Source: Bacillota bacterium
GTDB taxonomy: Bacteria > Bacillota_I > Bacilli_A > RF39 > UBA660
DNA: 64,000 bases
Direction: 5' to 3'
Assembly (NCBI GenBank): GCA_023430885.1
Contig: JAEYYH010000026.1
Span: 19,599-83,598, forward strand
The notes under the pieces were generated by a model that had not been told where the DNA came from, did not search any database, and was given only the letters and a program-made list of their open reading frames with translations. A program made the position numbers and the translations under genes. Below are positions 1,383-41,855 of the stretch, in pieces. Within the stretch, counting starts at the first letter, position 1. Each line of letters starts with the position of its first letter.

Positions 1383-1407
1383 AATTTAATATAAAATTTA
1401 CTAGACT

Positions 1408-4400: not shown

Positions 4401-4422
4401 GTATATATATTTATTGGATTAA
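1408..4422 (+). CDS. Conjugation-associated cell-wall hydrolase: N-terminal Gly/Ala-rich low-complexity region, one TM segment, SpoIID/LytB-like domain and C-terminal CHAP domain. Likely true start is ATG 1423 after RBS GGTGGTGAT
   Basis: TM segment ISPALPFIGGAIVTILVVVMVMAEIMVI. SpoIID-like stretch LKDYVIGVVYREIGASIKDNAEYLKANIIAAKSFTV. CHAP Cys in GQCVWYVKGRAQE and His in GHSLIVEEV. Position between VirB4 and T4CP is typical of Gram-positive conjugation hydrolases. Confidence 0.7.
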   Translation: MVVMVMDENNNVNENSGVDKKALEKQHTEQNTKKALQVAEKGAATYFAGPEGAAAVNALHNAPVVGKALNKVEDKAVEKLGKNKNIANLANKLGDSGVTDAADKGLDAVGAAGGGGAAAGASGAAKAGGATAGASSSATSAAKGINDGLGKLPAGLNGSGGSNSPNGPGGGFGGGDDELSPSQRTVQAVKKTGKILKMISPALPFIGGAIVTILVVVMVMAEIMVIRDKIVGVINEVLKTEQRLTNFVTGDGWRTEDEAFFYKLKVAYNDFKSTTNSDKPLDIPLIAATIHYSKVTDMNNWDGAEGEHEDDIGKNEDNYSDSEDTGIGSSIVETYKTWSFYQMANVKLGNYTLTPGQRGLLGHLVHTEIEWHKICILDAPAKWAEFFSDLFGFKSLQENLELNDGKVGSALLDEISQFLQLSPIGMITGFADLFKDIQAFADQDSSALEWWSANFVYEAREFIEYLSGNFNDERLVNTPYSYYNNLEGSGTKVDGTSVGKPAQSVYDESQNYSSASTGKTTDDDGTCILNFPYPKVVRSMDYKGYYRYLVNVYIPLTYYRGLEVDKDYSFLEVVQTANAIFDQKYLYEYLVGEDTQNLASGCDYNFSGSSSTTVSVDKNMIDNLYVNVMSGSCGSVKNCTNIEETVSLKDYVIGVVYREIGASIKDNAEYLKANIIAAKSFTVGRRTASQSGDKYYINMINSTNDQVYCSVTKGCMEASSNKKPAPSAELLEYLGKLYDEVYNDFLYNSSSSSFTGYYRAKESQCIGSDIAGACLGQNESQEMGDAGKKYEAILGYFYVDPIGMVDISTGNFSVGVMQCISSGLKLGTDGYYMRTTKPDPTNIYFNPPYVSNSNRGQCVWYVKGRAQEIIANSIADASKKETAKNAIQATNGNGNQWFTEELQKVFGSSTDYRLPKVGSIAVYTWTDSHCAQYWGGTCRENYGHSLIVEEVNGNNVTTSEGYTKCSTGSPGWECPIFFNGHYTIEQMKDLGGNYKFIGYIYLLD

Positions 4423-4432
4423 GGAGGATATA

Positions 4433-5098
4433 ATGAATAAAAAGATATTAGTATTATTATTAATAACATTTATATTTTTCTTAACTGGTTGCGATGCCAA
4501 ATATGAGATGGAAATAAAAAACAATAAAATAACTGAAAATATTTCTGTCTCTATACCTAGTAAATATACAGAAAAGGAAATTAATGAAAATATTGATTAT
4601 TTTGGCATAAATTCTGATTCTGCTTATAATCAAAAAATTGAAAAAAAAGATAATGAGAGTATTATTTCACTTAGTGGAAAAAAATCAAAGATTGATGATT
4701 TTTTTAATAATAGTGATAGTTTTGTAAATAAATGTTATAATAAGGTTAGTTTTGTACTAGAGGATGGCAAATATTATATAGGGACATCAAAAGGATTTAA
4801 ATGTTTAACTTATGAATACATGGAATTAGATAGTCTTACTATAAACATTAAAACTTATCATAAAGTGTATGATAATAATGCTGACAAGGTAAGTAACAAT
4901 GTGTATACGTGGATTATTAATAAAAACAATATTTCAACAAACAACATTTTATTTGTTGTAAGCAAGAATGAATATGTTTGGTATTATAGATATAGATATT
5001 TATTTGGCGGAATAGTAGCAGTATCTGTTATATTCTTAGTTACTTACATAGTTATTTCTATATTCAGAACAACTAGTAAGCGAGCAAATAAAATTTAG
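4433..5098 (+). CDS. Lipoprotein with C-terminal TM anchor (T4SS-associated, function unknown). The ORF track starts at 4376, but RBS AAGGAGGA favours ATG 4433
   Basis: MNKKILVLLLITFIFFLTGC lipobox LTGC. C-terminal hydrophobic segment LFGGIVAVSVIFLVTYIVISIF. Confidence 0.5.
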   Translation: MNKKILVLLLITFIFFLTGCDAKYEMEIKNNKITENISVSIPSKYTEKEINENIDYFGINSDSAYNQKIEKKDNESIISLSGKKSKIDDFFNNSDSFVNKCYNKVSFVLEDGKYYIGTSKGFKCLTYEYMELDSLTINIKTYHKVYDNNADKVSNNVYTWIINKNNISTNNILFVVSKNEYVWYYRYRYLFGGIVAVSVIFLVTYIVISIFRTTSKRANKI

Positions 5099-5109
5099 GA
5101 GGTAAATAG

Positions 5110-25994: not shown

Positions 25995-27374
25995 ATGAAT
26001 TGTAATAAGTGTGGAACTCCAATTTTGCCAGGCGAAAACTCTTGTCGTTTTTGTGGTACTATTGGTGACTATTCAAAAAGAACTCATGAAGAAACAAAAC
26101 CAGAAATAATAGATTTTACTACAGGCGATGACGATGTAGTTATTATAGATGATGAACCAGAAAAAATAGAAAGTATACCAGTAATTAAACCTGTTAGTGC
26201 TCCAGTAGTGCCAACAATTTCAAGGCAAGAAATGGTAGCAGCCCCAGTCCAAATGCCAACGCCAGTAGTTAGAGAGACAGTAGTAAGTACTCCTACTCCT
26301 GCACCGACAGTATTACCAGTTAATAATACTGCTGTTCCTAAAGTGGAAATTCCTGTTAGTATTCCAACAGTTAGTATTCCAGTAGTTACTCCAATTGTTA
26401 GTGAACCAGTTCCAGCAGTTGTAAAGCAAGCTCCTGTTATTCCAATTGTTTCAAATATAGAAGCAGAACCAATTCCTGTAATTAAAAAGGAAGAAGTAAT
26501 TACTCCTATAGTAAAAACACAAATAGATAATCCAACAGTAGATCAAGCTACTCCAGTAGTTTCAGTAGAATCGAATTCAGTTCCTACTGCTGTTTCAGCG
26601 TCTACTCCAGTATTAGTTACAAAAACTGATTCAAAAGAATCAAAAGAAGATTTAATAAGTGAGATTGTAACTCCAGTTGTAGAAGATAAGAAAGAAGCTA
26701 AAGAAAAGAAGAACACTCATGGATTATTCAATATAGTAACTTTTATATTAATAGTATTATTATTAATTTCAGTAATAGCTAATTGCTTTTTACTAATGGG
26801 AAACAGTAAAGAAAATCAAGAGGTGGACGATACTCCAGTAGTTAGTACTACTAATCAAACTATATATTTTAATGGTTATAAAGTAGAAGTTCCAAGTAAT
26901 TGGATAACTACTACTAATAAAGATGTAAATTATATTACATTAATGGACAGCACTGAAAATTGGGCATTTACTTTAAATGTGGCACCAAATACTAATGCAA
27001 GTGCTATTAGTGATAAAACAAGTATTGAAAATATTACAAAGGCATTTGGATCTAACAAATATTTATTTACTAGTGATTATTCTAAAACAGTTGATGGTAA
27101 AGATTTTTATATATTTAAAGGTAAATATTATGACTATAGTGTATATATAATAACTTCAAGTTTAGATAGTACAAATGCAGTTATAGCCGATTTAAAGTTT
27201 AAGGGTGAAGTGGATGATGAAGTTTTAACTAATGTTTTAAGTTCATTAACTACATTAAGTATTAAAGATTTGACAACTTTTTATAAAAATGATTTTAGTT
27301 TTGGAGATATTGCTTCATTAGTAACAAGTAATATTAATGTACCAACTACTACAAATACAGGAGGAAATGAATAA
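25995..27374 (+). CDS. Zn-ribbon / Pro-Val-rich linker / single-TM / extracellular-domain protein (hypothetical, signalling-like topology)
   Basis: N-terminus CNKCGTPILPGENSCRFCG. About 130-aa P/V/T-rich linker. TM LFNIVTFILIVLLLISVIANCFLLM. About 190-aa extracellular domain. Confidence 0.45.
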   Translation: MNCNKCGTPILPGENSCRFCGTIGDYSKRTHEETKPEIIDFTTGDDDVVIIDDEPEKIESIPVIKPVSAPVVPTISRQEMVAAPVQMPTPVVRETVVSTPTPAPTVLPVNNTAVPKVEIPVSIPTVSIPVVTPIVSEPVPAVVKQAPVIPIVSNIEAEPIPVIKKEEVITPIVKTQIDNPTVDQATPVVSVESNSVPTAVSASTPVLVTKTDSKESKEDLISEIVTPVVEDKKEAKEKKNTHGLFNIVTFILIVLLLISVIANCFLLMGNSKENQEVDDTPVVSTTNQTIYFNGYKVEVPSNWITTTNKDVNYITLMDSTENWAFTLNVAPNTNASAISDKTSIENITKAFGSNKYLFTSDYSKTVDGKDFYIFKGKYYDYSVYIITSSLDSTNAVIADLKFKGEVDDEVLTNVLSSLTTLSIKDLTTFYKNDFSFGDIASLVTSNINVPTTTNTGGNE

Positions 27375-27406
27375 TTTCCTTTTTTTTATAATTTTTTAAA
27401 AGGTAT

Positions 27407-27435
27407 TGACTTTTTTTAGTATCTAATTTATAATT
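27407..27435 (+). promoter_or_regulatory. Consensus sigma-A promoter: TTGACT - 17 nt - TATAAT
   Basis: Perfect -35/-10 spacing, about 7 nt before the start of the first T-box leader. Confidence 0.6.
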
Positions 27436-27439
27436 ATGG

Positions 27440-27712
27440 ACATAGGCGTTGAAGAAACGAGTAATAATAACAACTAATTTGAGCGAGTTAGATATGGTGG
27501 AAGCTAACAATTAAGTTTATTATGAAGAACAGTTCGGAGCTATCTATTTGAACTATAGTAGAATAGATCGGTTGTAATCCGTTACCAAGTTACATGAGAG
27601 ATTATATATTACTATACTTTGTATAATGATATTTAATAATGTGGGTGGTACCGCGGATACAACAGTAATTCGTCCCTTTGTGGAATTTTGAAGTACTGTT
27701 TTTTTATTCGAA
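27440..27712 (+). promoter_or_regulatory. T-box riboswitch leader 1 (putative Asn specifier AAC) with intrinsic terminator
   Basis: Canonical T-box sequence AATGTGGGTGGTACCGCGG at about 27641-27657. Terminator hairpin about 27664-27700 plus T7 run. Stem I region AGTAATAATAACAACTAATTTGAGCGAG contains AAC. Confidence 0.7.
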
Positions 27713-27716
27713 TTTG

Positions 27717-27792
27717 CCTGATTAGCTCAGTTGGTAGAGCATCCGGCTGTTAACCGGCAGGTCGTAGGTCCGAGTCCTACATCAGGCGCCAT
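27717..27792 (+). tRNA. tRNA-Asn (anticodon GUU) with encoded CCA; atypical T-loop UCCGAGU (C at position 55)
   Basis: Cloverleaf folded by hand. Acceptor GCCTGAT/ATCAGGC, D-arm GCTC-AGTTGGTA-GAGC, anticodon loop CTGTTAA, T-arm GTAGG-TCCGAGT-CCTAC, discriminator G, then CCA. Confidence 0.75.
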
Positions 27793-28043
27793 TTTTATTT
27801 TATAAGCGATGATTAAGAGAGTAATAATATGACTAGTAAAAGCGAGTTAGGTATGGTGGAAGCTAACAACCAATAGTATTATGAAAAACACTTATGAGCT
27901 ATTATTCTGAAATAAAGTAAGTTTAATCGGTTTAACCCGTTATCAAGTTAGAGTGACTATAGAATTATTTTATAGTAATTTGGGTGGTACCGCGGATACA
28001 ACAGTAATTCGTCCCTACAGGGATTGAATACTGTTTTTTTTAT
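27793..28043 (+). promoter_or_regulatory. T-box riboswitch leader 2 (putative Asp GAC specifier), near-duplicate of leader 1, directly upstream of gatC
   Basis: T-box sequence AATTTGGGTGGTACCGCGG at about 27980-27996. Terminator ACAGTAATTCGTCCCT/AGGGATTGAATACTGT plus T8. Stem I region AGTAATAATATGACTAGTAAAAGCGAG. Confidence 0.7.
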
Positions 28044-28065
28044 ACATTAAAGGAGGGATAATATT

Positions 28066-28362
28066 ATGGCAAGATTTACTAAGGAAATGGTTGTAGATTA
28101 TGCAGATAAGTTATTAATTGGTTTGACAGAAGAAGAAGTGACAATGGTACTAGATGAGTTTGAGATAATAGATAAGAATATTGATTTAATAAATGTAATA
28201 CCAAATATTTCAAAGGTAGAGCCAATGACTCATTGTTTGGATAATTTCATTTATGAATTAAGAGAAGATATACCAGACGAATCAGTAGATATTGATGAAT
28301 TATTACAAAATTGTGATAGTTATTTAAATAGAGAAGTAAAAGTACCAAAGGTGGTGGAATAA
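28066..28362 (+). CDS. gatC: Asp/Glu-tRNA amidotransferase subunit C
   Basis: 98 aa, RBS AAGGAGGG, translationally coupled to gatA, typical GatC. Confidence 0.85.
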   Translation: MARFTKEMVVDYADKLLIGLTEEEVTMVLDEFEIIDKNIDLINVIPNISKVEPMTHCLDNFIYELREDIPDESVDIDELLQNCDSYLNREVKVPKVVE

Positions 28363-28363
28363 T

Positions 28364-29821
28364 ATGGAATATATGGGTAAAACTATTGAAGAAATTCATG
28401 AAGCAATATTAAATAAAGAAGTAACAGTAAAAGAATTAATTGACGAATCAATTAAAAAATCACATTCTGTTCAAGAAAAATGTAATGCTTTTGTAACAAT
28501 ATTAGATGATGCTAAAGAAGTAGAAGTAACTTCTGATTTTTTATCTGGTATACCCTATGGAGTTAAGGATAATTATAGTACTAAGGGTATACTAAGTACT
28601 GGATCTAGTAACACATTAAGAGACTATGTTCCATTTTTTACTGCAACAGCTATTGAAAATTTAGAAAAAGCTGGTGCTGTAGCAGTAAATAAAACTGTTT
28701 TAGATGAATTTGGTATGGGTGGAACAGGAACAACGGGGCATACAGGAATTGTAAGAAATCCATGGGATTTATCAAGAATGTGTGCTGGGTCATCTGCTGG
28801 ATCAGCAGCAGCAGTAGCAGCAGGTGTATATCCTTATGCTACCGGAAGCGATACCGGCGATTCCATTCGTAAACCAGCAGCATATTGTGGAATAGTTGGT
28901 TATAAACCAACATATGGCATGATATCTAGATACGGTTTATTTGCTTTTGCAAGCAGTTTAGACCACTGTGGAGTTTTGACTAGAACAGTAAAAGATGCAG
29001 CTATAGTAGTTGACAGTATGAAGGGTATAGACAAAAATGATATGACTAGTTGGGATTCAAGTAGTATTCAGTTATATAAATCAATTACTGGTGAAGTAAC
29101 TGGTAAAAAAATGTGCTATATCAAAGAAATATGTGATATAAATATGTATCCAAACGCTTCAGAAGAACTAAAAGAACATTTAAGTAATTTTAATAAAGTA
29201 TTAGATAAATGTAAACAACTAGGAATAGAAATAGAAGAGGTAAGTATTGATAAGAAATTACTTAATGCTGTTCCTTCTGTTTATGTAGTTATTTCTTGTG
29301 CTGAAGCAACTTCAAATATGTCTAATTTAACAGGTATTATTTTTGGACCTAGAGGTGAAGGCGATAATTATATCGATAAAATGAAAAACTATAGAACTGA
29401 AGGTTTTTCTCCATTAATTAAGAGAAGATTTGTAATAGGTTCATATGTTTTACAATCACAAAACAAAGATAGATATTTCCATAATGCTCAAAGAGTTAGA
29501 AGACTTTTAGTAGATGAATGGAATAAATTATTTGATAATTATGATGCAGTTATATTACCAGTAGGAAGTGGACCAGCTAAATATATAGATGGATCACAAA
29601 ATATGCTAGAAGAAAACACTGCTATTTTAGAAGAACACTTACAAGTTGGTAACTTTGGAGGATTTCCTTCAATTACAATTCCAGATGGATTTGTAAGTAA
29701 ATTACCAGTAGGTGTCAACATAACAGGTAAATGCTATGATGATGCCAACGTATTAAACATAGCTTATGCTTTAGAAAGTACAATGGATTATAAAAACCAA
29801 ATAGCTAAGGAGGTAAAATAA
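28364..29821 (+). CDS. gatA: Asp/Glu-tRNA amidotransferase subunit A (amidase)
   Basis: Amidase signature GGSSAGSAAAVAAG; Ser-cisSer-Lys family. Confidence 0.92.
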   Translation: MEYMGKTIEEIHEAILNKEVTVKELIDESIKKSHSVQEKCNAFVTILDDAKEVEVTSDFLSGIPYGVKDNYSTKGILSTGSSNTLRDYVPFFTATAIENLEKAGAVAVNKTVLDEFGMGGTGTTGHTGIVRNPWDLSRMCAGSSAGSAAAVAAGVYPYATGSDTGDSIRKPAAYCGIVGYKPTYGMISRYGLFAFASSLDHCGVLTRTVKDAAIVVDSMKGIDKNDMTSWDSSSIQLYKSITGEVTGKKMCYIKEICDINMYPNASEELKEHLSNFNKVLDKCKQLGIEIEEVSIDKKLLNAVPSVYVVISCAEATSNMSNLTGIIFGPRGEGDNYIDKMKNYRTEGFSPLIKRRFVIGSYVLQSQNKDRYFHNAQRVRRLLVDEWNKLFDNYDAVILPVGSGPAKYIDGSQNMLEENTAILEEHLQVGNFGGFPSITIPDGFVSKLPVGVNITGKCYDDANVLNIAYALESTMDYKNQIAKEVK

Positions 29822-31278
29822 TGGATAAATATAAAGTACTAATTGGTCTAGAAATGCACTGTGAAATAAGTGAAACGAAAACTAAAGTTTTCTCTAGTGC
29901 TAAAAACTTATATTGTGATGTGGCAAATAGTAACATTAGACCAGTAGATATGGCTTTTCCAGGAACTTTACCTGTCTTAAATAAAGAAGCTGTAAAAAAA
30001 TCATTAATGGCGAGTATGATACTTGGTTGTACTGTACCAGAATATATATACTTTGAAAGAAAAAATTATTATTATCCTGATTTACCAAAAGGTTATCAAA
30101 TTACTCAAGAAACAAAACCTGCTCCTGTAGGAATATATGGAGAGTTAAGATATGAGTGTGAAGGAGAATATAAAACTGTAAGAGTTAATAATATTCATTT
30201 AGAAGAAGATGCGGCTTCAACAGATCATTATTCAAGATATTCAACAATTGATTATAATAGAGCGGGAGTACCACTTCTTGAACTTGTTACTGAACCAGAT
30301 TTTCATTCAGCTATTGAAGCAGTTTCGTTTTTAGAAACAATGCGAACAATTTATCAATATGCTGGAATTAGTGAAGCTGATAGTAGAAAAGGTCAATTAA
30401 GATGTGATGTAAACGTATCTATTATGGATGTAGACAAAGATGATAAGAATCCTGAAAACTGGGGAACAAAAGTAGAAATAAAAAATATTAATTCTCTTGG
30501 CGGAGTAAGAGATGCCATTAATTACGAAGTAGCAAGACAAATTGAAGCAAAAGAAAACAATACTTATGATAAAATTGAGCAACAAACGAGAAGATGGGAC
30601 GAAGCAACTATGACTACTGTATATATGAGAAGTAAAGTAGATGCTATTGACTATAAATACTTTGTTGAGCCAAATATACCAAAGTTTAAGTTATCAAAAG
30701 AGTGGCTTGAAGAAATAAGAAATAGTATTCCTGTACTTGCAACCGCTCGAAAAGAGAAATATATAAATGAGTATGGTTTATCAGCTTATGATGCAACTAT
30801 ACTTGTTAAAGAAAAAAATATTTCTGATTTCTATGAAGAAACTATTAAATTAGGTGCTGATCCTAAAGTAAGTTCAAACTGGATGACTACTATGGTTTTA
30901 GGTCATTTAAATAAAGCTGAACTTGAATTAAAGGACATCTTTTTAACACCAACATATTTAGTAGAATTAATTAATTTAATAAATAGTGGAGAAATATCTT
31001 CAAAACAAAGTAAAGAAATTTTTTACAAGATGTTAGAAGAAAAGAAAGAACCTAAAAAACTTGTAAAAGAAATGGGAATGAAACAAATTGGTGATGAGTC
31101 TACATTAAGACCTATGATTATTGCAATTATAGAAGAACACTTAGAACTAATTGAGGAATATAGAAAAGGCAGAAATGTATTTGACTTTTTCGTAGGCCAA
31201 GTAATGAAGCAAACTCGTGGTCAAGCTAATCCAACATTAACAGCGCAAATAATTAAAGAAGAAATAGATAAAAGATAG
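29821..31278 (+). CDS. gatB: Asp/Glu-tRNA amidotransferase subunit B
   Basis: N-terminus IGLEMHCE and C-terminal YqeY-like helical domain; 485 aa. Confidence 0.92.
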   Translation: MDKYKVLIGLEMHCEISETKTKVFSSAKNLYCDVANSNIRPVDMAFPGTLPVLNKEAVKKSLMASMILGCTVPEYIYFERKNYYYPDLPKGYQITQETKPAPVGIYGELRYECEGEYKTVRVNNIHLEEDAASTDHYSRYSTIDYNRAGVPLLELVTEPDFHSAIEAVSFLETMRTIYQYAGISEADSRKGQLRCDVNVSIMDVDKDDKNPENWGTKVEIKNINSLGGVRDAINYEVARQIEAKENNTYDKIEQQTRRWDEATMTTVYMRSKVDAIDYKYFVEPNIPKFKLSKEWLEEIRNSIPVLATARKEKYINEYGLSAYDATILVKEKNISDFYEETIKLGADPKVSSNWMTTMVLGHLNKAELELKDIFLTPTYLVELINLINSGEISSKQSKEIFYKMLEEKKEPKKLVKEMGMKQIGDESTLRPMIIAIIEEHLELIEEYRKGRNVFDFFVGQVMKQTRGQANPTLTAQIIKEEIDKR

Positions 31279-31287
31279 GTGATATGA

Positions 31288-32664
31288 ATGAAAGATTCCA
31301 AAGAATTATATAGTACTTATAGTGATTTTATAGGTAAAGAAGTTACACTACAAGGATGGATTAAAAATCATCGTAAACAAAAAGAAATGGGCTTCATTGA
31401 ATTTAATGATGGAACATTTTTTAAGAGTGTTCAACTTATATATAATAGTAAATTAAGAAAATTTGAGGATATACAAAAATTACGTATTGGTAGTGCTATA
31501 ACTGTTGTTGGTACTGTTATAGAATCACCTAGAGAAGAGCAACCATTTGAAATAGCTGTTAAAGAAATTACTTTAGAAGGTGATTGTCCAGATGACTATC
31601 CAATTCAACCAAAGAGACACACTAGGGAATTTTTAAGAGAACAAGCTTATTTAAGACCTAGAACTAACTTATTTGGAGCGGTATTTAGAGTAAGAAGTGT
31701 AGTAGCAATGGCTATTCACTCATATTTTCAAGAAAGAGGATATGTCTATGTTCATGCACCAATAATTACAGGCAGTGATTGTGAAGGTGCAGGAGAAATG
31801 TTTCAAGTTACAACAATAAATGTTGATAAACTAGATGGTAAAGAAATAGATTACACAAAAGATTTCTTTGGTAAAAAAACAAGTCTTACCGTATCTGGTC
31901 AACTTCAAGGTGAAGCATTTGCAATGGCTTATAAAAAGATATATACATTTGGGCCGACTTTCAGAGCTGAAAACTCTAATACGAAAACACATGCTTCTGA
32001 ATTTTGGATGATTGAACCAGAAATAGCTTTTTGCGATTTAAATGGTTTAATGGATATAGAAGAAGATGTTTTAAAGTATATTATAAAATATACTTTAGAG
32101 CATGCTAAAGAAGAATTAGAATTTTTTGATAAATTTGTTGAATCTGGACTTATTAACAAATTAGAAAAAGTAGTAAGTTCAAAAGCAGCTAGAATCACTC
32201 ATAAAGAAGCTATTAAGATATTATTGAAGTCTGGTAAAGACTTTGAAAATAAACCAGCTTATGGTGAAGATCTTGCTACTGAACATGAAAAATATTTAAC
32301 AGGAGAACATTTTAATAGTCCAGTATTTGTTTGCGATTGGCCAAAAGATATAAAAGCATTTTATATGCGCATGAATGATGATAAAGAAACAGTTGCAGCT
32401 GTAGATTTATTAGTGCCAGGATCAGGAGAACTTATGGGTGGTTCTCAAAGAGAAGAAAGAATAGATTTAATGATTGATAGAATGAAAAAACTTGGTATAG
32501 ATGCTAGTGAAATGGATTGGTATCTTAACTTAAGAAAATTTGGTGGCTGCAAGCACAGTGGATTTGGTATGGGATTTGAGCGCTTACTTATTTATATAAC
32601 AGGTGTTGAAAATATTAGAGATGTTATACCTTTCCCAAGAACTCCAAAAAATTGTGAATTTTAA
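31288..32664 (+). CDS. asnS: Asparaginyl-tRNA synthetase
   Basis: Class IIb with N-terminal OB fold. SGQL (rather than the Asp-type QSPQ) and FGPTFRAENSNTKTHASEFWMIEPE match AsnRS. 458 aa, no GAD insertion. Confidence 0.85.
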   Translation: MKDSKELYSTYSDFIGKEVTLQGWIKNHRKQKEMGFIEFNDGTFFKSVQLIYNSKLRKFEDIQKLRIGSAITVVGTVIESPREEQPFEIAVKEITLEGDCPDDYPIQPKRHTREFLREQAYLRPRTNLFGAVFRVRSVVAMAIHSYFQERGYVYVHAPIITGSDCEGAGEMFQVTTINVDKLDGKEIDYTKDFFGKKTSLTVSGQLQGEAFAMAYKKIYTFGPTFRAENSNTKTHASEFWMIEPEIAFCDLNGLMDIEEDVLKYIIKYTLEHAKEELEFFDKFVESGLINKLEKVVSSKAARITHKEAIKILLKSGKDFENKPAYGEDLATEHEKYLTGEHFNSPVFVCDWPKDIKAFYMRMNDDKETVAAVDLLVPGSGELMGGSQREERIDLMIDRMKKLGIDASEMDWYLNLRKFGGCKHSGFGMGFERLLIYITGVENIRDVIPFPRTPKNCEF

Positions 32665-32675
32665 GAGGTGATAAA

Positions 32676-34418
32676 ATGAAAGGTAATAAATATAGAACAG
32701 TCTACTGTGGTAAAGTTACTAAAGAAGATATTGGTAAGGTTATAAGAATAGCCGGCTTTGTTGAAAATATTAGAGACCATGGTGGTATTATATTTGTTGA
32801 TATCAGAGACGAATCTGGAAGTATTCAAACAGTAAGTAATGATGAAAAGATTTTTGATCATATTACACGTGAATCATCAATAACACTACTTGGTACTGTT
32901 AGACTTAGATCAGAAGATACAATAAATAACAGACTAGCTACAGGTGAGTTAGAATTACTAGTAACAGAACTTGAGGTTCTTGGCAAAGCTAACAACGAAC
33001 TTCCTTTTGAAATAATGACTTCAAAAGATGTTAAAGAAGATATAAGATTAAAATATAGATATTTAGATTTAAGAAATGAAAAAGTACATGAAAACATAGT
33101 ATTTAGATCTAAAGTAATATCACATTTAAGAGAAAAAATGAGTAGTATGGGATTTTTAGAAATACAAACTCCAATTTTAACTTGTTCTTCTCCAGAAGGA
33201 GCTAGAGATTATATAGTTCCATCAAGAATATATCATGGTAAATTTTATGCATTACCACAAGCTCCACAAATGTTTAAACAATTACTTATGGTAAGCGGTT
33301 TTGATAGATATTTTCAAATAGCACCTTGTTTTAGAGACGAAGATGCTAGAGCAGATCGTGCTCCAGGTGAATTTTATCAATTAGATTTTGAAATGGCCTT
33401 TGCAGAAGCAGAAGATGTTTATGCTGTTGCTGAAGAGGTTCTATATGATACATTTACTAAATTTAGTACTAAAGAAGTTAGTAGTAAACCATTTAGAAGA
33501 ATATCATATGCAGAGTCAATGTTAAAATATGGAACAGATAAGCCCGATTTAAGAAATCCTTTAGAGATAATTGATCTAACTGAAGTGTTTGCTGATACTA
33601 CATTTAAACCATTTGCAAATACTATCATAAGAGGTATAGCGGTAGATGATATAGGAACTAAATCAAACTCATGGTTTAATGATTTAGTTGATTATGCTAA
33701 GACACTTGGTATGCCAGGAATTGGTTATGTAACACTAATGGAAGATGGTACTTTAAAAGGACCTATTGATAAGTTTTTATCTGAAGAAGAAAGAGATTTA
33801 TTAATATCTAAAGCTAATTTAAAAACAAACAGTGTATTATTTTTTATCGCTGATAAGAAAAAGGCTCCAACTTTAGCGGGTTTTATAAGAAGTGAACTTG
33901 GAAGAAGATTAGAAATAATTGATAATAGTAAATTTGAGTTTTGCTTTATTGTGGATTTTCCTATGTATGAATGGGATGAAGAAGAAGACAAATACGTCTT
34001 TACACATAATCCTTTCTCAATGCCACAAGGTGGTATGAATGATCTATTAAATAAAAAACCAGAAGATATCCTTGCATATCAATACGATATAGTATGTAAC
34101 GGTGTTGAATTATCTAGCGGTGCTGTTAGAAATCATGATTTAGATATAATGGAAAAAGCTTTTTCAATAGCTGGATATTCTAAAGATGAATTAGAAAGAC
34201 GCTTCAAAGCTTTATATACAGCATTTCATTACGGTGCTCCACCACATGCTGGTATGGCTCCTGGTATTGATAGAATGATAATGCTTTTAAAAGAAGAAGA
34301 AAGTATTCGTGAAGTAATTGCATTCCCAATGAGTAGCAGTGCTCAAGATTTAATGATGGGATCACCTAGTGATGTAACAGAACAGCAATTAAGAGATGTT
34401 CATATTAAGATAAGATAA
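32676..34418 (+). CDS. aspS: Aspartyl-tRNA synthetase, bacterial type with GAD insertion domain
   Basis: LPQAPQMFKQLLMVSG, FRDED, GAPPHAGMAPGIDRMIMLL. 580 aa. Confidence 0.9.
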   Translation: MKGNKYRTVYCGKVTKEDIGKVIRIAGFVENIRDHGGIIFVDIRDESGSIQTVSNDEKIFDHITRESSITLLGTVRLRSEDTINNRLATGELELLVTELEVLGKANNELPFEIMTSKDVKEDIRLKYRYLDLRNEKVHENIVFRSKVISHLREKMSSMGFLEIQTPILTCSSPEGARDYIVPSRIYHGKFYALPQAPQMFKQLLMVSGFDRYFQIAPCFRDEDARADRAPGEFYQLDFEMAFAEAEDVYAVAEEVLYDTFTKFSTKEVSSKPFRRISYAESMLKYGTDKPDLRNPLEIIDLTEVFADTTFKPFANTIIRGIAVDDIGTKSNSWFNDLVDYAKTLGMPGIGYVTLMEDGTLKGPIDKFLSEEERDLLISKANLKTNSVLFFIADKKKAPTLAGFIRSELGRRLEIIDNSKFEFCFIVDFPMYEWDEEEDKYVFTHNPFSMPQGGMNDLLNKKPEDILAYQYDIVCNGVELSSGAVRNHDLDIMEKAFSIAGYSKDELERRFKALYTAFHYGAPPHAGMAPGIDRMIMLLKEEESIREVIAFPMSSSAQDLMMGSPSDVTEQQLRDVHIKIR

Positions 34419-34432
34419 TTCTTATCTTTTTG
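34408..34432 (+). terminator. Rho-independent terminator overlapping the aspS stop
   Basis: GATAAGATAATTCTTATCTTTTTG. Confidence 0.5.
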
Positions 34433-34536
34433 TTTGCGTAATATTTTGGCGTGACATAAGCATTAAAATATTTATTTGTCAAGATATAAAATTAATAGTT
34501 TTTCCTTTATTTTCAATAAAAAAGCATGAAAAGTTC

Positions 34537-34643: not shown

Positions 34644-34916
34644 ATGTCAAAAACTGATTTAGTAAACTATATTGCAGAAGAAACAGGATTAACAAAAGCT
34701 GATTCAGCAAGAGCTTTAGAAGCTTTCGTTGGAGGAGTAACAGAAGGTCTTAAAAAAGAAGGTAAAGTTACTTTAACTGGTTTCGCTACTTTCACTGCTA
34801 AGAAAAAAGCAGCAAAAACAGGACGTAATCCTCGTACTGGTGAAGCTGTAGCTATTCCTGCAAGAGTTGCTGTAACTGTTAAAGCTGGTTCTAAATTAAA
34901 AGACGCTTTAAACTAA
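34644..34916 (+). CDS. hup: DNA-binding protein HU
   Basis: MSKTDLVNYIAEETGLTKAD...GFATF...RNPRTGE, 90 aa. Confidence 0.9.
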   Translation: MSKTDLVNYIAEETGLTKADSARALEAFVGGVTEGLKKEGKVTLTGFATFTAKKKAAKTGRNPRTGEAVAIPARVAVTVKAGSKLKDALN

Positions 34917-34920
34917 TTTT

Positions 34921-34947
34921 AAAAAAAGGCTTTTCCGCCTTTTTTTC
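34921..34947 (+). terminator. Rho-independent terminator after hup
   Basis: AAAAAAAGGCTTTTCCGCCTTTTTTT. Confidence 0.55.
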
Positions 34948-34964
34948 ATGTGAGGAGGGATAAC

Positions 34965-36068
34965 TTGTTTAATATTTCACTTAAGATACTAGAAAAAATA
35001 GAACAAACCGGATTTGAAGCATATATAGTTGGTGGATTTGCAAGAGATAATTACATAGGACGTAATAGTACTGATGTAGATATATGTACAAATGCAACTC
35101 CAAAAGAACTAAAAAATATTTTTCAAGGAAGTATGCTTCCAAAAGAACAATATGGTTCAGTTGCCGTCATATATAAGAAAATTAGATTTGATATAACAAC
35201 TTATCGTAAAGATATAAAATATCAGAATAATAGATTACCTGTTGAAATAAAATACATAAATAATTTAGAGGATGATTTGAAAAGAAGAGACTTTACTATG
35301 AATACACTTTGTATTGATAAAGAAGGAAATTATATAGACCTATTAAATGCTAGAGCTGATATTGATAAAAAGATTATAAAAACTGTAGGAAATGCTAAAG
35401 AAAAACTAAATGAAGATTCACTTAGAATACTTCGTGCCATTAGATTTGCAACTATACTTGATTTTGAATTAGATGAAGAATTAAAGCAAGCTATAAAAGA
35501 ATATGGCTATTTATTAAAGAAACTATCTTATTTTAGAAAAAAGGAAGAATTAGACAAGATTTTTAGCAGTATTAATGTTAAACGTGGTATAAAGTTATTA
35601 CTTGAATTTGATCTTGATAAGTATTTAGATTTAAACAATTTAGATAAAATAATTATCACATCATCGCCTTTAGCAATATGGGCACAGTTGGATGTTTTAA
35701 ATACATATAGTTTTTCAAATATTGAAAAATGTTCAATAGAAACAATAAATATATTGAAAACAAATATGTCGTTTGATAACTACGAGCTATATACTTATGG
35801 ATTATATTTGACTTCTTTAGTTGCAGAAATTAATAATATTGATAAAACTTTATTAACAAAAAGGTATATGAGTCTTCCTATAAAAAACAAAAGAGATATA
35901 GTGATTGATGGTGCTGAAATATGTAATGTTCTTAATATAAAACCATCAAAGATTATAAAAGAAATAATAGAGGATTTAGAGAAGAAAATCATTCATGGGC
36001 AACTAGAAAATGACAAAAATCTTATAATTAATTATATTAAAAAGAATTATTCTGGAAGAGTTGAATAA
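34965..36068 (+). CDS. cca: CCA-adding tRNA nucleotidyltransferase; TTG start after RBS GAGGAGGG (the track's 34950 start lies inside the hup terminator)
   Basis: GGFARD motif, nucleotidyltransferase head plus HD-less Firmicute-type tail. Confidence 0.8.
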   Translation: MFNISLKILEKIEQTGFEAYIVGGFARDNYIGRNSTDVDICTNATPKELKNIFQGSMLPKEQYGSVAVIYKKIRFDITTYRKDIKYQNNRLPVEIKYINNLEDDLKRRDFTMNTLCIDKEGNYIDLLNARADIDKKIIKTVGNAKEKLNEDSLRILRAIRFATILDFELDEELKQAIKEYGYLLKKLSYFRKKEELDKIFSSINVKRGIKLLLEFDLDKYLDLNNLDKIIITSSPLAIWAQLDVLNTYSFSNIEKCSIETINILKTNMSFDNYELYTYGLYLTSLVAEINNIDKTLLTKRYMSLPIKNKRDIVIDGAEICNVLNIKPSKIIKEIIEDLEKKIIHGQLENDKNLIINYIKKNYSGRVE

Positions 36069-36113
36069 TTCTTTTTTAATTGATATAATTTATATATGAT
36101 AGGATGCGATAGT

Positions 36114-38729
36114 ATGAATAAAAAGAAAGGTTTTACATTGGTAGAAATACTGGCTGTTGTAATAATACTTGGGGTTATAAGTATTATTGTTTATCCAGTT
36201 CTTAATAAAGTCTTAAAAGATAATAGAAAAAGAGCATTTGAGGCTAGTCTAAATGCAGTAGTTAGAGCAGCTGAATTATATAAAACAGATAATAATAATG
36301 TTTTGGGTATATTTGATTACGATGACGAAAATATTGATATAAGTAATCTAGGTAAATGGCAAGCAGGAACTTTAACTGATTCTGTTGATACTGATGGAAA
36401 TACAAAAATATATCTTACGGGATTTTATGATGGTGAATTTTGTGCCACTGGTTATGAAGGTAACTTCACAATAATTGAAGGAAAGTGTGTGGAAACACCT
36501 GAATTATGTTTCATTATGAAAAATAACGAAATTATACAATATGAATTTGACTATAGTGCATGTCCAACGAATGTTAATATTCCTACTAGCATTGATGGTC
36601 AGGATGTTTTATATATAGGCGAAGGTGTTTTTGAAAGTTCACCTATAGCTTCTGTAATTATTCCTAATAGTATTAAAGAAATTAGAGATAATGCTTTTAA
36701 TGATAGTGCCTTGACATCACTTGATTTGACTAATGCTACATCTCTTCAAATAATTGGTTCTGGGGCATTTGAATATACACACTTAACTAATGTAGATTTT
36801 ACCAATCTTACAAGTTTAGTAGAAATAAAAGGTGCGGCTTTTGAATATTCTGGACTAACAGGAACTTTAGATTTAACAAACTCTACAAATTTAACAAGGA
36901 TATGGCCATATTCATTTGAAGAAAATCAAATATCTTCAGTTAAATTAAGTGGTTTAACTCATCTTGAAAGAATTGGAGAATATGCTTTTGAAGAAAATAA
37001 TATAACAGGAGTTTTAGAATTAACAAACATGCCAGCATTAGTATCATTAGATGATGGTGCTTTTAGCAATAATAATATAACAAGTATTAATCTAACAAGC
37101 ACTAATGTTCTAGAAAGCATTGGTCAAAATGCTTTTGCATATAATGATATTACTAATATTAATGTAGATACAATTAATAATATAATGTGGTTAGGAGCAT
37201 ATGCTTTTGCATATAATGATTTAACTAGTTTCAGTTTAACGTTATTTCCAAATATCGATTATGTTTCAGCTGGTGTAGTTAATAATAATCAGCTATCTAA
37301 TAGTGAAGCCTTCATATATAATGTAGTTAATGGAACAATAGAGCCTAGTATTTTGATATCATACGGTGGTGCAAGTAGAAGTAATATTGTAATACCTAGC
37401 ACTGTAGTATCAATAGGTGAGAATACTTTTTATAGTCAGGGTATAACAAGTGTTGACTTTAGTCAGGCTACTGGATTAACAAATATTGATTATTATGCAT
37501 TCGCTTCCAATAATTTAACTACAATAACATTACCTAGTACGTTAATAGAAATAGGTCAATATGCATTTTCTGAAAATCAACTAGTTAGTATTACTATTCC
37601 AGAAAATACAACAACAATAGATGATTATGCATTTTACTCTAACAGATTAACTTCTGTAACATTACCCAGCACATTATTAGGAATAGGACAATATGCATTT
37701 GCTTACAATCAATTAGCTAATATTACTATTCCAGGTAATACAACAACAATAGAAAACTATGCATTTAAAAGTAATGCTACTTGGCAAACAATAACAATCT
37801 TATCTAATGGGGTAAATAGTACATTGAGATTTAATTATGTTTGGGCTGATATTGGTTGGCCAATGGAAAAAATTCCTACTGTAGAAGTATTATCAACTCT
37901 TTCTACAGCAGCCCAAAATAATTTTGATTTTCAAAATTTTACATATTATAAAGTTGCTGTACCAACAAGTGGGCAATACAAATTTGAGGTATGGGGAGCC
38001 CAAGGAGGTTGTAACAGTGGTGGCAAAGGTGGATATTCTACCGGCTTAGTACAATTAAATAGTGGAGATACCTTATATGTTTATGTTGGTGGTAAAGGTT
38101 TGTGTTCAAGCGAAACTAGTTCTAGTCTAATGGGGGGATTTAATGGTGGCGGATTTGCTTATAAAAATAGTTATACCGCTGGTTCTGGAGGCGGTGCTAC
38201 CGACATAAGAGTAACAACTAATTCATTATATGCCCGTGTGATTGTTGCCGGTGGCGGCGGTGGTTATAGTTCTGTTGGCGGTTATACTGGCGGTTTTGGT
38301 GGAGGTTTAGTAGGTGGTTCAACATATAACAATGCTACATTTTCAGCTGGTGGTGGAACTCAAATAAATGGTGGGGTAAATGGCTGTTATTCTAATGGAA
38401 ATGGTAAATTTGGATTTGGTGGTTCATACGGTTCTGCTTGTGGTTCACTTTGGGGATATCCAATTTCTGGTGGTGGATCAGGTTGGTATGGTGGTGGAAG
38501 CACCAGCATAAGTGCCGGCGGTGGTTCTGGTTGGATTTACACATCAACAGACTTTACAAATTGGCAATCAGGAAATGCAACAGATGCAGCACAATGGTTA
38601 TTAAATAGTTCATATTATTTATTAAGTGCACAAACAATTGCGGGTAATCTTGCAATTACTAATCCAGATGGTAGCAGTGTTACAGGTCATGCAGGTAATG
38701 GTTACGCCAGAATAACATTTATAGCTTAA
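36114..38729 (+). CDS. Modular type IV pilin: prepilin leader plus pilin domain, BspA-type leucine-rich repeats, C-terminal Gly-rich domain
   Basis: MNKKKG|FTLVEIL class III signal. Pilin D-region FCATGYEGNFTIIEGKC. More than 15 LRR_5-like repeats (L..IG..AF....LT.I). C-terminal 250 aa is Gly-rich and ends GNGYARITFIA. Confidence 0.65.
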   Translation: MNKKKGFTLVEILAVVIILGVISIIVYPVLNKVLKDNRKRAFEASLNAVVRAAELYKTDNNNVLGIFDYDDENIDISNLGKWQAGTLTDSVDTDGNTKIYLTGFYDGEFCATGYEGNFTIIEGKCVETPELCFIMKNNEIIQYEFDYSACPTNVNIPTSIDGQDVLYIGEGVFESSPIASVIIPNSIKEIRDNAFNDSALTSLDLTNATSLQIIGSGAFEYTHLTNVDFTNLTSLVEIKGAAFEYSGLTGTLDLTNSTNLTRIWPYSFEENQISSVKLSGLTHLERIGEYAFEENNITGVLELTNMPALVSLDDGAFSNNNITSINLTSTNVLESIGQNAFAYNDITNINVDTINNIMWLGAYAFAYNDLTSFSLTLFPNIDYVSAGVVNNNQLSNSEAFIYNVVNGTIEPSILISYGGASRSNIVIPSTVVSIGENTFYSQGITSVDFSQATGLTNIDYYAFASNNLTTITLPSTLIEIGQYAFSENQLVSITIPENTTTIDDYAFYSNRLTSVTLPSTLLGIGQYAFAYNQLANITIPGNTTTIENYAFKSNATWQTITILSNGVNSTLRFNYVWADIGWPMEKIPTVEVLSTLSTAAQNNFDFQNFTYYKVAVPTSGQYKFEVWGAQGGCNSGGKGGYSTGLVQLNSGDTLYVYVGGKGLCSSETSSSLMGGFNGGGFAYKNSYTAGSGGGATDIRVTTNSLYARVIVAGGGGGYSSVGGYTGGFGGGLVGGSTYNNATFSAGGGTQINGGVNGCYSNGNGKFGFGGSYGSACGSLWGYPISGGGSGWYGGGSTSISAGGGSGWIYTSTDFTNWQSGNATDAAQWLLNSSYYLLSAQTIAGNLAITNPDGSSVTGHAGNGYARITFIA

Positions 38730-38730
38730 A

Positions 38731-38751
38731 AAGGTCTATGACCTTTTTTTC
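38731..38751 (+). terminator. Rho-independent terminator (AAAGGTCTATGACCTTTTTTT)
   Basis: Hairpin plus T-run directly after the stop codon. Confidence 0.5.
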
Positions 38752-38796
38752 TTGAAAAATAAAGAAATAAAAGATATAATGTATAAAGGTGATTTT

Positions 38797-39769
38797 ATGT
38801 TTAAAATAAAGAATTTAGAAATAAAAAACAATGTCGTTCTAGCACCAATGGCGGGCATTTGTAATAGTGCATATAGAACTATTATAAAAGATATGGGATG
38901 CGGACTTATATATGCCGAAATGGTAAGTGATAAAGCGATAACATATGGTAGTAAAAAAACTATAGATATGCTTTATATGACAGATTATGAAAGACCAATT
39001 GCTCAACAAATATTTGGTAGCGATAAAGAATCATTTGTTCTTAGTGCTAAATATATATATGAAAATATGAAACCGGATATAATAGATATTAATATGGGTT
39101 GTCCTGTACCAAAAGTAGCAGTCCGTGCACAAGCAGGAAGTGCTCTATTAAAGAGTCCAGATAAAGTTAAAGAAATAGTAGAAGCAGTTGTTAAGGCTGT
39201 TCCTGTCCCTGTTACAGTCAAAATTAGAAGTGGTTGGGATGATAAGAGTATAAATGCAGTAGAAATTGCTAAAATAGTAGAGAAAGCTGGGGCTTCTGCT
39301 ATTACGATTCATCCTAGAACTAGAGCACAGGGATATAGCGGAAATGCAAACTGGGATATAATAAAGCAAGTTAAAGATGCTGTTTCAATTCCTGTTATTG
39401 GAAATGGAGATATAAAGTCCTGTTATGATGCCAAACGTATGCTTGATGAAACTGGATGTGATGCTGTAATGATAGGTAGAGGTGTACTTGGTAATCCTTG
39501 GCTTATAAAAGAGTGTATCGATTATATTGAAAAAGGAATAGAACCTCAAAAAGTACCTGTAGAAGCAAAAATAGATATGATAAAACATCATATTAATTTA
39601 CTTAGAAAAACTAAGTGTGACAAGCTAGCTTTACTTGAAATAAGAAGCCATGCTACTTGGTATTTAAAGGGGATAAAAAATAGTAGTGGTTTACGAAGTG
39701 AAATTTGTCACGCAGCAAGTATTAATGAATTATTAAATATGTTAGATACTTTTTTAAAGGAGAAAAAAT

Positions 39770-39780
<11 letters not shown>
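38797..39780 (+). CDS. dus: tRNA-dihydrouridine synthase (DusB-like)
   Basis: MFKIKNLEIKNNVVLAPMAG start after RBS AAGGTGAT. Catalytic Cys in NMGCPVPK, TIM-barrel FMN motifs. Confidence 0.8.

Positions 39781-41855
<2,075 letters not shown>

Follow-up and report, generated by a model that had tools for sequence, protein, structure and literature searches.

A predicted T-box-controlled operon with an embedded tRNA-Asn gene

We analysed a 64,000-nt stretch of DNA (the window; contig JAEYYH010000026.1, positions 19,599 to 83,598) from a Bacillota bacterium of a lineage of uncultured gut bacteria. At 28066-34418, the window carries a contiguous block of five genes, gatC, gatA, gatB, asnS and aspS, which encode the amidotransferase GatCAB, asparaginyl-tRNA synthetase (AsnRS) and aspartyl-tRNA synthetase (AspRS), with open reading frames exactly where a first-pass annotation had placed them. 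T-boxes are sensors of tRNA charging that control synthetase, biosynthesis and transporter genes, and the first-pass annotation had positioned the block behind T-box leaders. These leaders are real: two T-boxes exceeded the gathering score of 93 for Rfam RF00230 (model length 219), with E = 3e-25 and 8e-29. A tRNA-Asn(GTT) gene that had been overlooked lies between them, and the leader therefore reads promoter-like site, T-box 1, tRNA-Asn, T-box 2, gatC. The features of the locus are listed below.

27359-27387, + strand: predicted terminator of the upstream 459-aa gene (hairpin 27359-27383 plus U-run; -9.0 kcal/mol, z = -2.6)
27406-27434, + strand: promoter-like site (TTGACT, 17-nt spacer, TATAAT; 11 of 12 positions, best match in the region)
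27440-27705, + strand: T-box 1 (RF00230, 117.0 bits; Rfam span 27440-27680, model 1-219)
27716-27791, + strand: tRNA-Asn(GTT) gene (ARAGORN; Rfam tRNA 68.4 bits; cloverleaf fold)
27800-28042, + strand: T-box 2 (RF00230, 131.1 bits; Rfam span 27800-28019, model 1-219)
28066-28362, + strand: gatC, 98 aa (NCBIfam TIGR00135, 40.6 bits, cut-off 47.1; weak Pfam GatC match)
28364-29821, + strand: gatA, 485 aa (TIGR00132, 434 bits, cut-off 481; Pfam Amidase, 339 bits)
29821-31278, + strand: gatB, 485 aa (NF004012, 558 bits, cut-off 338; Pfam GatB_N and GatB_Yqey)
31288-32664, + strand: asnS, 458 aa (AsnRS model NF003037, 642.8 bits, cut-off 414)
32676-34418, + strand: aspS, 580 aa (bacterial AspRS model NF001750, 750 bits, cut-off 443; Pfam GAD domain)
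34407-34436, + strand: terminator-like hairpin with an AT-rich stem, overlapping the aspS stop codon and followed by UUUGUUUG

Both T-boxes are specific for asparagine, in agreement with the T-box control proposed for the unit. In T-box 1, the specifier AAC (27528-27530; context GAA-G-AAC-A, 27524-27531) and the UGGU bulge (27646-27649) precede a terminator hairpin that folds at 27661-27700, with a U7 run and a U-tract extending to 27705. T-box 2 has AAC at 27887-27889 (context GAA-A-AAC-A, 27883-27890), UGGU at 27985-27988 and a terminator hairpin at 28000-28035 (-14.9 kcal/mol, z = -3.6), with a U8 run and a U-tract to 28042. In each case the 5′ arm of the terminator overlaps the 3′ strand of the antiterminator. 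The AAC specifier complements the GUU anticodon of the embedded tRNA-Asn, and the variable U of the bulge faces discriminator G73 of the GCCA end as a G-U wobble. The gaps are short, with 10 nt between the T-box 1 U-tract and the tRNA gene and 8 nt between the tRNA gene and T-box 2.

The tRNA gene, called by ARAGORN, the Rfam tRNA model and its cloverleaf fold, has G1-C72 and discriminator G73, encodes its CCA end and carries C at position 55 (27770). A U27-C43 mismatch sits atop its anticodon stem. C55, within the T-loop UCCGAGU, recurs in 39 of 114 tRNA-Asn genes of the lineage (23 loci); U (pseudouridine 55) is near-universal at this position, and T-box Stem I docks at the tRNA elbow, the region in which C55 lies.

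The predicted terminator at 27359-27387 marks the 5′ boundary of the unit, and the hairpin at 34407-34436 (-10.5 kcal/mol, z = -4.2; an equally good fold in 0 of 200 shuffles) marks its predicted 3′ boundary. A strict terminator scan had missed the latter and both T-box terminators, which were found by folding. Together with a single strong, putative promoter 6 nt 5′ of T-box 1, identified by its consensus match, the flanking terminators are consistent with the five genes forming one unit. The junctions within the block are as tight as previously noted: 1 nt between gatC and gatA (TAA-T-ATG), a 1-nt overlap of gatA and gatB (TAATG), 9 nt between gatB and asnS and 11 nt between asnS and aspS, with a Shine-Dalgarno sequence at each junction and another, AAAGGAGG, at 28050 ahead of gatC.

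Protein identities were assigned using NCBIfam profiles with curated cut-offs and Pfam domains. GatA and GatC fall just under their NCBIfam cut-offs. The whole lineage is divergent; the nearest GatB outside the lineage's own cluster is 47% identical, among 1.8 billion cluster representatives. The gatC call is additionally backed by its position immediately 5′ of gatA, and the Lys/Ser/Ser amidase motifs of GatA are intact when aligned with S. aureus GatA. The first-pass annotation had left room for the 458-aa protein being an archaeal-type AspRS2. Classification with profile models shows a true AsnRS, since a second AsnRS model also scores above its cut-off (595.3 bits, cut-off 342.6) and two archaeal AspRS models remain below theirs (251 and 212.9 bits, cut-offs 353 and 368.4). 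The AspRS is of the bacterial, GAD-containing type, as had been stated. Within the 64-kb window there is no glnS, asnA, asnB, hisS or gltX, no second gatCAB or aspS, and no further copy of tRNA-Asn.

Conservation of the T-box and tRNA arrangement

To place the locus among its relatives, a genome collection was scanned with GatA, which gave at least 560 related species-level loci; the best 80 and the window (81 loci) were analysed. The relatives include CAG:822, Ca. Coprosoma and Ca. Fimihabitans, and their complete chromosomes measure 1.3-1.5 Mb; the window has a G+C content of 29%. With one or two exceptions, a T-box with an AAC specifier precedes the operon in all loci with an intact 5′ side. 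One to five tandem tRNA-Asn genes lie between T-box and gatC in 35 of the 81 loci, and in 33 the T-box lies directly 5′ of the first protein gene; the remainder are mostly cut at a contig end. Rfam confirmed representative T-boxes of each architecture. A metagenome scan for a T-box core followed 50-80 nt further on by a tRNA D-arm added 20 contigs with the order T-box(AAC), tRNA-Asn, gatC. Since the same block lies behind an asparagine T-box in at least 560 species-level loci, the arrangement is not due to chance.

In the relatives, the first tRNA gene mostly begins 7-12 nt after the T-box U-run, successive tRNA genes are 1-11 nt apart and the last is 28-100 nt from the gatC ATG. This spacing is too tight for a separate promoter, which argues that the tRNA genes are transcribed through the T-box. 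If the tRNA gene, or T-box 2 and gatC, instead had its own promoter, T-box 1 would gate the tRNA at most, and the tRNA would be a housekeeping gene that had landed in the leader region. Weak promoter-like matches (9/12) do occur inside the leader, at 27582-27618 and 27799-27828, and tRNA-Asn lies downstream of aspS in some relatives. However, intervals of 8-10 nt (window) and 1-12 nt (relatives) are too short to hold a promoter, promoter-like matches across the region are fewer than in shuffled sequence (34 versus 45.8), and transcripts from the weak internal starts would lack Stem I and terminate by default. Moreover, the order of T-box, tRNA genes and T-box is conserved across species with orthologous T-boxes, and in 30 loci tRNA-Asn is followed by gatC within 28-100 nt with no T-box between them. 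We regard separate transcription as very unlikely.

Four relatives (L004, L019, L008 and L039) have the same double T-box form as the window. First T-boxes are 83-88% identical across species and second T-boxes 81-92%, compared with 73-81% between first and second. As first groups with first and second with second, the double gate is old and has been retained; this clustering of orthologues rules out a recent duplication. Recruitment of T-box 2 from the T-box of a stand-alone asnS gene was also considered and rejected, because that T-box is no closer to T-box 2 than to T-box 1 (~55% identity to both).

The tRNA content of the leader varies. In one relative, the metagenome contig L131 (Ga0074193_1000066), whose proteins are 96-98% identical to those of the window, the two T-boxes enclose five tRNA-Asn genes, compared with one in the window. 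Where relatives have tandem copies, these are different isodecoders whose acceptor stems carry compensatory changes (GCCUGAU and GCUCAAU types). At L043:8887-9310, a tRNA-Ile/tRNA-Glu pair lies immediately 5′ of the T-box, with ~26 nt between tRNA-Glu and T-box, and the same layout was found at L037, L042, L044, L048, L050, L056, L061, L072, L080 and L083. Here the T-box looks like an internal attenuator in a tRNA operon, without a promoter of its own. Loci with no tRNA between T-box and gatC instead have a tRNA-Asn/tRNA-Glu pair located ~80-360 nt after aspS (L007, L015, L018, L021, L023, L027, L034, L046, L055, L064 and L065). Thus, whether in the leader or after aspS, tRNA-Asn stays linked to the operon.

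The specifier lies in the context GAA-N-AAC-A, which was recovered by automated parse from 51 leaders, read by eye in others, and found in outgroup and metagenome loci too. The base 5′ of AAC is U in most T-boxes of the lineage and less often A or G; AAC alone is invariant. The bulge is UGGU or, in seven loci, UGGC, both of which fit discriminator G73. These variations bear on whether the T-boxes might each read two tRNAs, with T-box 1 (GAAC) responding to tRNA-Glu and tRNA-Asn, and T-box 2 (AAAAC) to tRNA-Lys and tRNA-Asn. In T-box 1, G-AAC does contain an overlapping GAA codon, and UGGU would form a Watson-Crick pair with A73, the discriminator of this lineage's tRNA-Glu. There are also precedents, namely a two-codon T-box in C. 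acetobutylicum (Saad 2013, as relayed in PMC4052509) and a lysK T box of B. cereus for which tRNA-Asn is a partial inducer (PMC2916919). However, the base before AAC is mostly U, so the overlapping codon is not conserved, and UGGC fits G73 of tRNA-Asn but not A73 of tRNA-Glu. A two-codon Glu/Asn T-box was rejected as a conserved feature, because GAAC occurs in T-box 1 only and the preceding base varies in relatives; dual specificity of the window's T-boxes is very unlikely.

asnS is a variable member of the unit

Although gatCAB with its T-box recurs throughout the clade, asnS lies within the unit in only 22 of the 81 loci. Elsewhere it stands alone, in the context YuzI-DUF3603-asnS, and the stand-alone asnS of one relative carries its own AAC T-box, so that both routes to asparaginyl-tRNA answer to the same signal there. 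In five loci (L047, L080, L083, L073 and L051), the order T-box-(tRNA-Asn)-gatCAB-asnS occurs without a following aspS, and aspS and asnS seem able to replace one another at the 3′ end of the unit. A distant outgroup, with GatB 47% identical, has T-box(AAC)-gatC-gatA-gatB-aspS.

The presence of asnS in so few units and its stand-alone position elsewhere indicate that its place inside the window's unit is derived. Judged from these gene orders, the ancestral core of the clade is T-box(Asn)-gatCAB-aspS, to which the tRNA genes, asnS and the second T-box appear to have been added later. In C. acetobutylicum, experiments identified this same gene arrangement as a transamidation operon controlled by tRNA-Asn (Saad 2012/2013, as relayed in PMC4206432 and PMC4052509). 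The combination of both routes in the window is, on the same comparison of gene orders, a derived elaboration of this core.

A unit predicted to be induced by asparagine starvation

We consider it probable that 27406-34436 is one unit, induced by asparagine starvation, that jointly makes tRNA-Asn, AsnRS, AspRS and GatCAB. This interpretation is built on the sequence elements observed here and on their order, spacing, specificity signatures and conservation. From these we infer co-transcription and antitermination by tRNA-Asn, as well as aspartylation of tRNA-Asn by AspRS and amidation of the G1-C72 tRNA-Asn by this GatCAB.

Transcription would start at the promoter-like site and reach T-box 1. 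Uncharged tRNA-Asn would then place its GUU anticodon on AAC and its free GCCA end on UGGU, favouring the antiterminator and allowing polymerase to continue; without uncharged tRNA-Asn, transcription would end at the T-box 1 hairpin and U-tract. Read-through would transcribe the tRNA-Asn gene, which would be excised from the transcript, and T-box 2 would repeat the same check before gatC-gatA-gatB-asnS-aspS. The tRNA would therefore pass a single gate and the enzymes two serial gates, and because these act in series, a steeper response is expected for the enzymes. Of the enzymes produced, AsnRS would charge free asparagine directly, and a non-discriminating AspRS with GatCAB would make asparagine on the tRNA, starting from aspartate. 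The induced unit would thus supply every macromolecule required for Asn-tRNA-Asn. The co-transcribed tRNA could serve as both substrate and scaffold, being the RNA part of an AspRS-tRNA-GatCAB complex.

The same regulation bears on what GatCAB is for. The first-pass annotation had asked whether it is mainly used for glutamine, and so small a genome likely has a single gatCAB, which would be needed for Gln-tRNA. A mainly glutamine-directed role runs counter to the regulation, since an AAC T-box stands before gatCAB, often with tRNA-Asn in the same predicted transcript; the operon is, by its control elements, marked as dedicated to asparagine, not glutamine. The two uses are not exclusive, and GatCAB may do both jobs.

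Specificity of AspRS, tRNA-Asn and GatB

Several observations weigh against a unit that makes Asn-tRNA by both routes. The promoter and the flanking terminators are predictions from consensus and folding. If these are the only gatCAB and aspS genes of the organism, asparagine gating would tie the supply of Gln-tRNA and Asp-tRNA to asparagine status. The benefit of a circuit in which uncharged tRNA leads to more tRNA, a positive loop, is conjectural. The remaining objections concern the specificity of AspRS and of GatCAB.

The residues of AspRS that determine discrimination give a mixed answer. Work by Bernard et al. (2006, J Bacteriol) is said to have identified a His (P. aeruginosa H31) as the main signature of non-discriminating AspRS, with Leu in discriminating enzymes, and Gly at P. 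aeruginosa G83 is reportedly 'usually' present in the non-discriminating type. When aligned with AspRS enzymes of solved structure, the window AspRS had 'RDHGG', like the P. aeruginosa and mycobacterial enzymes (PDB 4wj3, 4o2d and 4rmf, annotated as Asp/Asn ligases), and E. coli AspRS had 'RDLGS'. This His is invariant, being present in each of 66 genome loci and 11 metagenome loci and also in the outgroup. The G83-type Gly, on the other hand, is absent: the window has Asp at the equivalent position, and no relative has Gly there (D, E, N or T). Taken with control by an asparagine T-box, the His signature favours an AspRS that is probably non-discriminating, without proving it.

A further objection comes from the tRNA. 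We examined 161 tRNA-Asn genes, 115 from the window and genome loci (114 without a duplicate copy in L001) and 46 from metagenomes, and all have G1-C72, G73 and an encoded CCA. Bacterial GatCAB is reported to require U1-A72 (PMC1635274, PMC2811023), a rule restated in a 2023 review (PMC9976931), and mutation to G1-C72 cuts kcat/KM ~100-fold (PMC1635274). A survey of 547 genera ties GatCAB use of tRNA-Asn to U1-A72, which was present in every genus without AsnRS (PMC4206432). Mycoplasma, Acholeplasma and Erysipelothrix lack U1-A72, and each has AsnRS and AsnA (PMC4206432 Table S1). Because these genera are relatives of the present lineage, G1-C72 probably goes back to ancestors in which the direct route was used. 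The only tRNA-Gln encountered, which belongs to a relative, carries the canonical U1-A72. Accordingly, the claim that one riboswitch-controlled unit encodes both routes stands as far as the genes go, all of which are present, but the use of both is predicted, and G1-C72 conflicts with the GatCAB rule.

The part of GatB that enforces this rule is, however, altered in the clade. In S. aureus, a 3-10 turn of GatB (K183-M184-E185-E186, with Met184 as anchor) enforces U1-A72, and the archaeal turn is 1-3 residues shorter (PMC2811023). We compared the window GatB with GatB chains from the PDB and 147 diverse GatB representatives. Its turn has the bacterial length with the residues D-S-R-K ('ADSRKG', compared with 'VKMEEG' in S. 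aureus). An archaeal-type deletion is ruled out, since the bacterial length is found in the window and in 146 of the 147 representatives. Across the lineage, position 184 is Ser in 77 loci and Thr in one, position 185 is Lys or Arg (about 78 loci), and Glu186 of S. aureus is replaced by Lys. By comparison, 144 of the 147 diverse GatB proteins have Met, Leu, Ile or Phe at position 184, and neither Lys nor Arg occurs at position 185. Two more distant lineages with a T-box and tRNA-Asn (L096 and L134) also have Ser at 184, as does outgroup P0121. The alignment thus indicates that the turn has lost its hydrophobic anchor across the clade and almost nowhere else, a change that fits co-evolution with G1-C72 tRNA-Asn. 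A caution is that the Ser184 lineages may all be one clade, in which case the correlation would not be independent evidence.

These observations allow the simplest alternative to be weighed, namely that only the direct route operates, with AsnRS charging tRNA-Asn, AspRS charging only tRNA-Asp and GatCAB acting only on Glu-tRNA-Gln. The T-box would then be historical, or tRNA-Asn charging would be a proxy for translational demand in an asparagine-rich organism of 29% G+C. The disfavouring of G1-C72 by the bacterial GatCABs studied agrees with this, as does the canonical U1-A72 of a relative's tRNA-Gln. So does the example of Mycoplasma and Erysipelothrix, which share the tRNA feature and have AsnRS, AsnA and GatCAB without GlnRS. 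AsnRS is also apparently widespread in the clade, in the operon or stand-alone. However, a direct route alone leaves unexplained why AAC precedes gatCAB-aspS in every informative locus despite GatB identities of 47-60%, why tRNA-Asn genes lie between T-box and gatC, and why most operons have aspS but not asnS. Nor does it account for a His of the non-discriminating type in all of the AspRS sequences, or for the alteration, specifically in this clade, of the GatB element that enforces U1-A72. We judge it unlikely.

Returning to the asparagine-induced unit, a more specific version is that the T-boxes gate the genes of their own ligand tRNA and that the GatCAB of this clade has left the U1-A72 rule through its remodelled GatB turn. 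We put this forward tentatively, as a joint proposal whose chances fall a little short of even. On this version, the entire Asn-transamidosome of the clade (tRNA-Asn scaffold, AspRS and GatCAB), accompanied or not by AsnRS, would come from a single transcript gated by uncharged tRNA-Asn, and tRNA-Asp would have to be discriminated against through other elements. In regulatory terms, a positive loop at the level of the tRNA would be nested inside a negative loop at the level of the enzymes, a part of the proposal that we hold with the same reserve.

T-boxes in front of tRNA genes elsewhere

Two unrelated metagenome contigs carry T-box-tRNA-Phe units with no protein gene. L116:911-1400 (FWWL01000098.1) has a full-length T-box (115 bits) with a UUC specifier, two tRNA-Phe(GAA) genes and a terminator, and L127:3661-4100 (Ga0153923_100001) has a full-length T-box (106 bits), also with UUC, one tRNA-Phe(GAA) gene and a terminator. 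In these units the T-box appears, from its specifier and gene order, to control only its own cognate tRNA. Their presence in unrelated contigs indicates that gating of a cognate tRNA gene by a T-box is a recurring design.

Three other candidates (L095:82-290, L120:850-1060 and L105:1218-1400) were not counted, because the Rfam gathering score was not reached (L095 and L105 were scanned). Each has a T-box-like core (GGGTGGTACCGCG and a terminator) and, after it, an unusual tRNA-like sequence called Arg(GCG) by ARAGORN. The versions in L095 and L120 lack CCA and have an aberrant anticodon loop, and open reading frames of arginine-biosynthesis type, with N-termini resembling ArgG and ArgC, follow them.

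Genomic neighbourhood

Directly 3′ of the operon, 34644-41855 holds genes for HU, the CCA-adding enzyme, a tRNA-dihydrouridine synthase and LysRS, forming a local tRNA-related cluster. Just upstream of the leader, the 459-aa protein (25995-27374) has no Pfam match; its features are a Cys-rich, zinc-ribbon-like motif at the N-terminus, an extended region rich in Pro, Val and Thr, and a transmembrane segment, and it is 43-67% identical in relatives with the double T-box layout. At 3-7929, genes for a TraG/HerA-like ATPase, a 1004-aa CHAP-domain protein and a VirD4/TraG coupling protein are of conjugation type and point to a possible integrated conjugative element. Two genes, at 36096-38729 and 60321-62369, encode large proteins that combine leucine-rich repeats of the BspA type with a glycine-rich domain like that of ALK/LTK, and a near-identical copy of the former in L001 has a weak N-terminal match to pilin-type N-methylation.

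Comparison with known systems and significance

Tandem T-box leaders are found at B. subtilis thrZ and in the trp operons of some Firmicutes. The window resembles them in having two T-boxes of the same specificity in series, with a sharper response expected, but differs in that the cognate tRNA gene lies between its T-boxes and the gates would control different outputs. Genes for tRNAs are co-transcribed with a protein gene in E. coli thrU-tyrU-glyT-thrT-tufB. As in that operon, tRNA and mRNA in the window would share one primary transcript and be parted by processing, whereas thrU-tyrU-glyT-thrT-tufB is not known to have a riboswitch gate and transcription of the window's tRNA would depend on its own charging state.

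The nearest parallel in gene content and logic is C. acetobutylicum, in which a tRNA-Asn-dependent T-box controls an AspRS-GatCAB operon (Saad 2012/2013, as relayed in PMC4206432 and PMC4052509). As described there, both systems have an asparagine T-box over AspRS and GatCAB in an organism that also has AsnRS, and in both uncharged tRNA-Asn induces (in the window, would induce) tRNA-dependent formation of Asn-tRNA. In contrast to that operon as these sources describe it, the window clade has 1-5 tRNA-Asn genes in the gated transcript, and the window itself has asnS in the operon and two serial T-boxes around the tRNA. C. acetobutylicum also has duplicated gatCAB and aspS sets, whereas the window organism has a small genome, and the overlapping Glu codon of the C. 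acetobutylicum T-box is not conserved in the window clade. For the C. acetobutylicum tRNA-Asn, U1-A72 is listed (PMC4206432 Table S2), compared with G1-C72 here. New relative to this type of operon would therefore be the gated tRNA genes and a G1-C72 tRNA-Asn paired with a remodelled GatB.

Both routes also coexist in Thermus thermophilus, Deinococcus radiodurans, Staphylococcus aureus, Bdellovibrio bacteriovorus and Legionella pneumophila; the rationale proposed is that AsnRS draws on asparagine while there is a supply of it and that the indirect route produces it under scarcity (PMC4206432). Like these bacteria, the window combines AsnRS, GatCAB and an AspRS that accepts tRNA-Asn (in the window, a prediction). 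Unlike them, for which PMC4206432 describes no shared operon or riboswitch and lists U1-A72, it has the components fused, both physically and in their predicted regulation, and lacks U1-A72. In archaea, tRNA-Asn likewise has G1-C72 and the GatB 3-10 turn departs from the bacterial consensus (PMC1635274, PMC2811023). The window turn differs from the archaeal one in keeping its full bacterial length, with only the residues changed, and its GatB is otherwise of bacterial type.

We found no description of a T-box controlling tRNA genes in full-text literature searches or in the T-box database paper, although coverage was incomplete and an earlier description is possible. If uncharged tRNA-Asn does gate tRNA-Asn genes, riboswitches would govern tRNA supply itself across a large group of gut bacteria, and the regulatory circuit would have a built-in positive loop. 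The uniform G1-C72 pair in operons regulated as if for tRNA-dependent asparagine synthesis challenges the U1-A72 rule (PMC9976931), and specific residues of the GatB turn become candidates for an adaptation to G1-C72.

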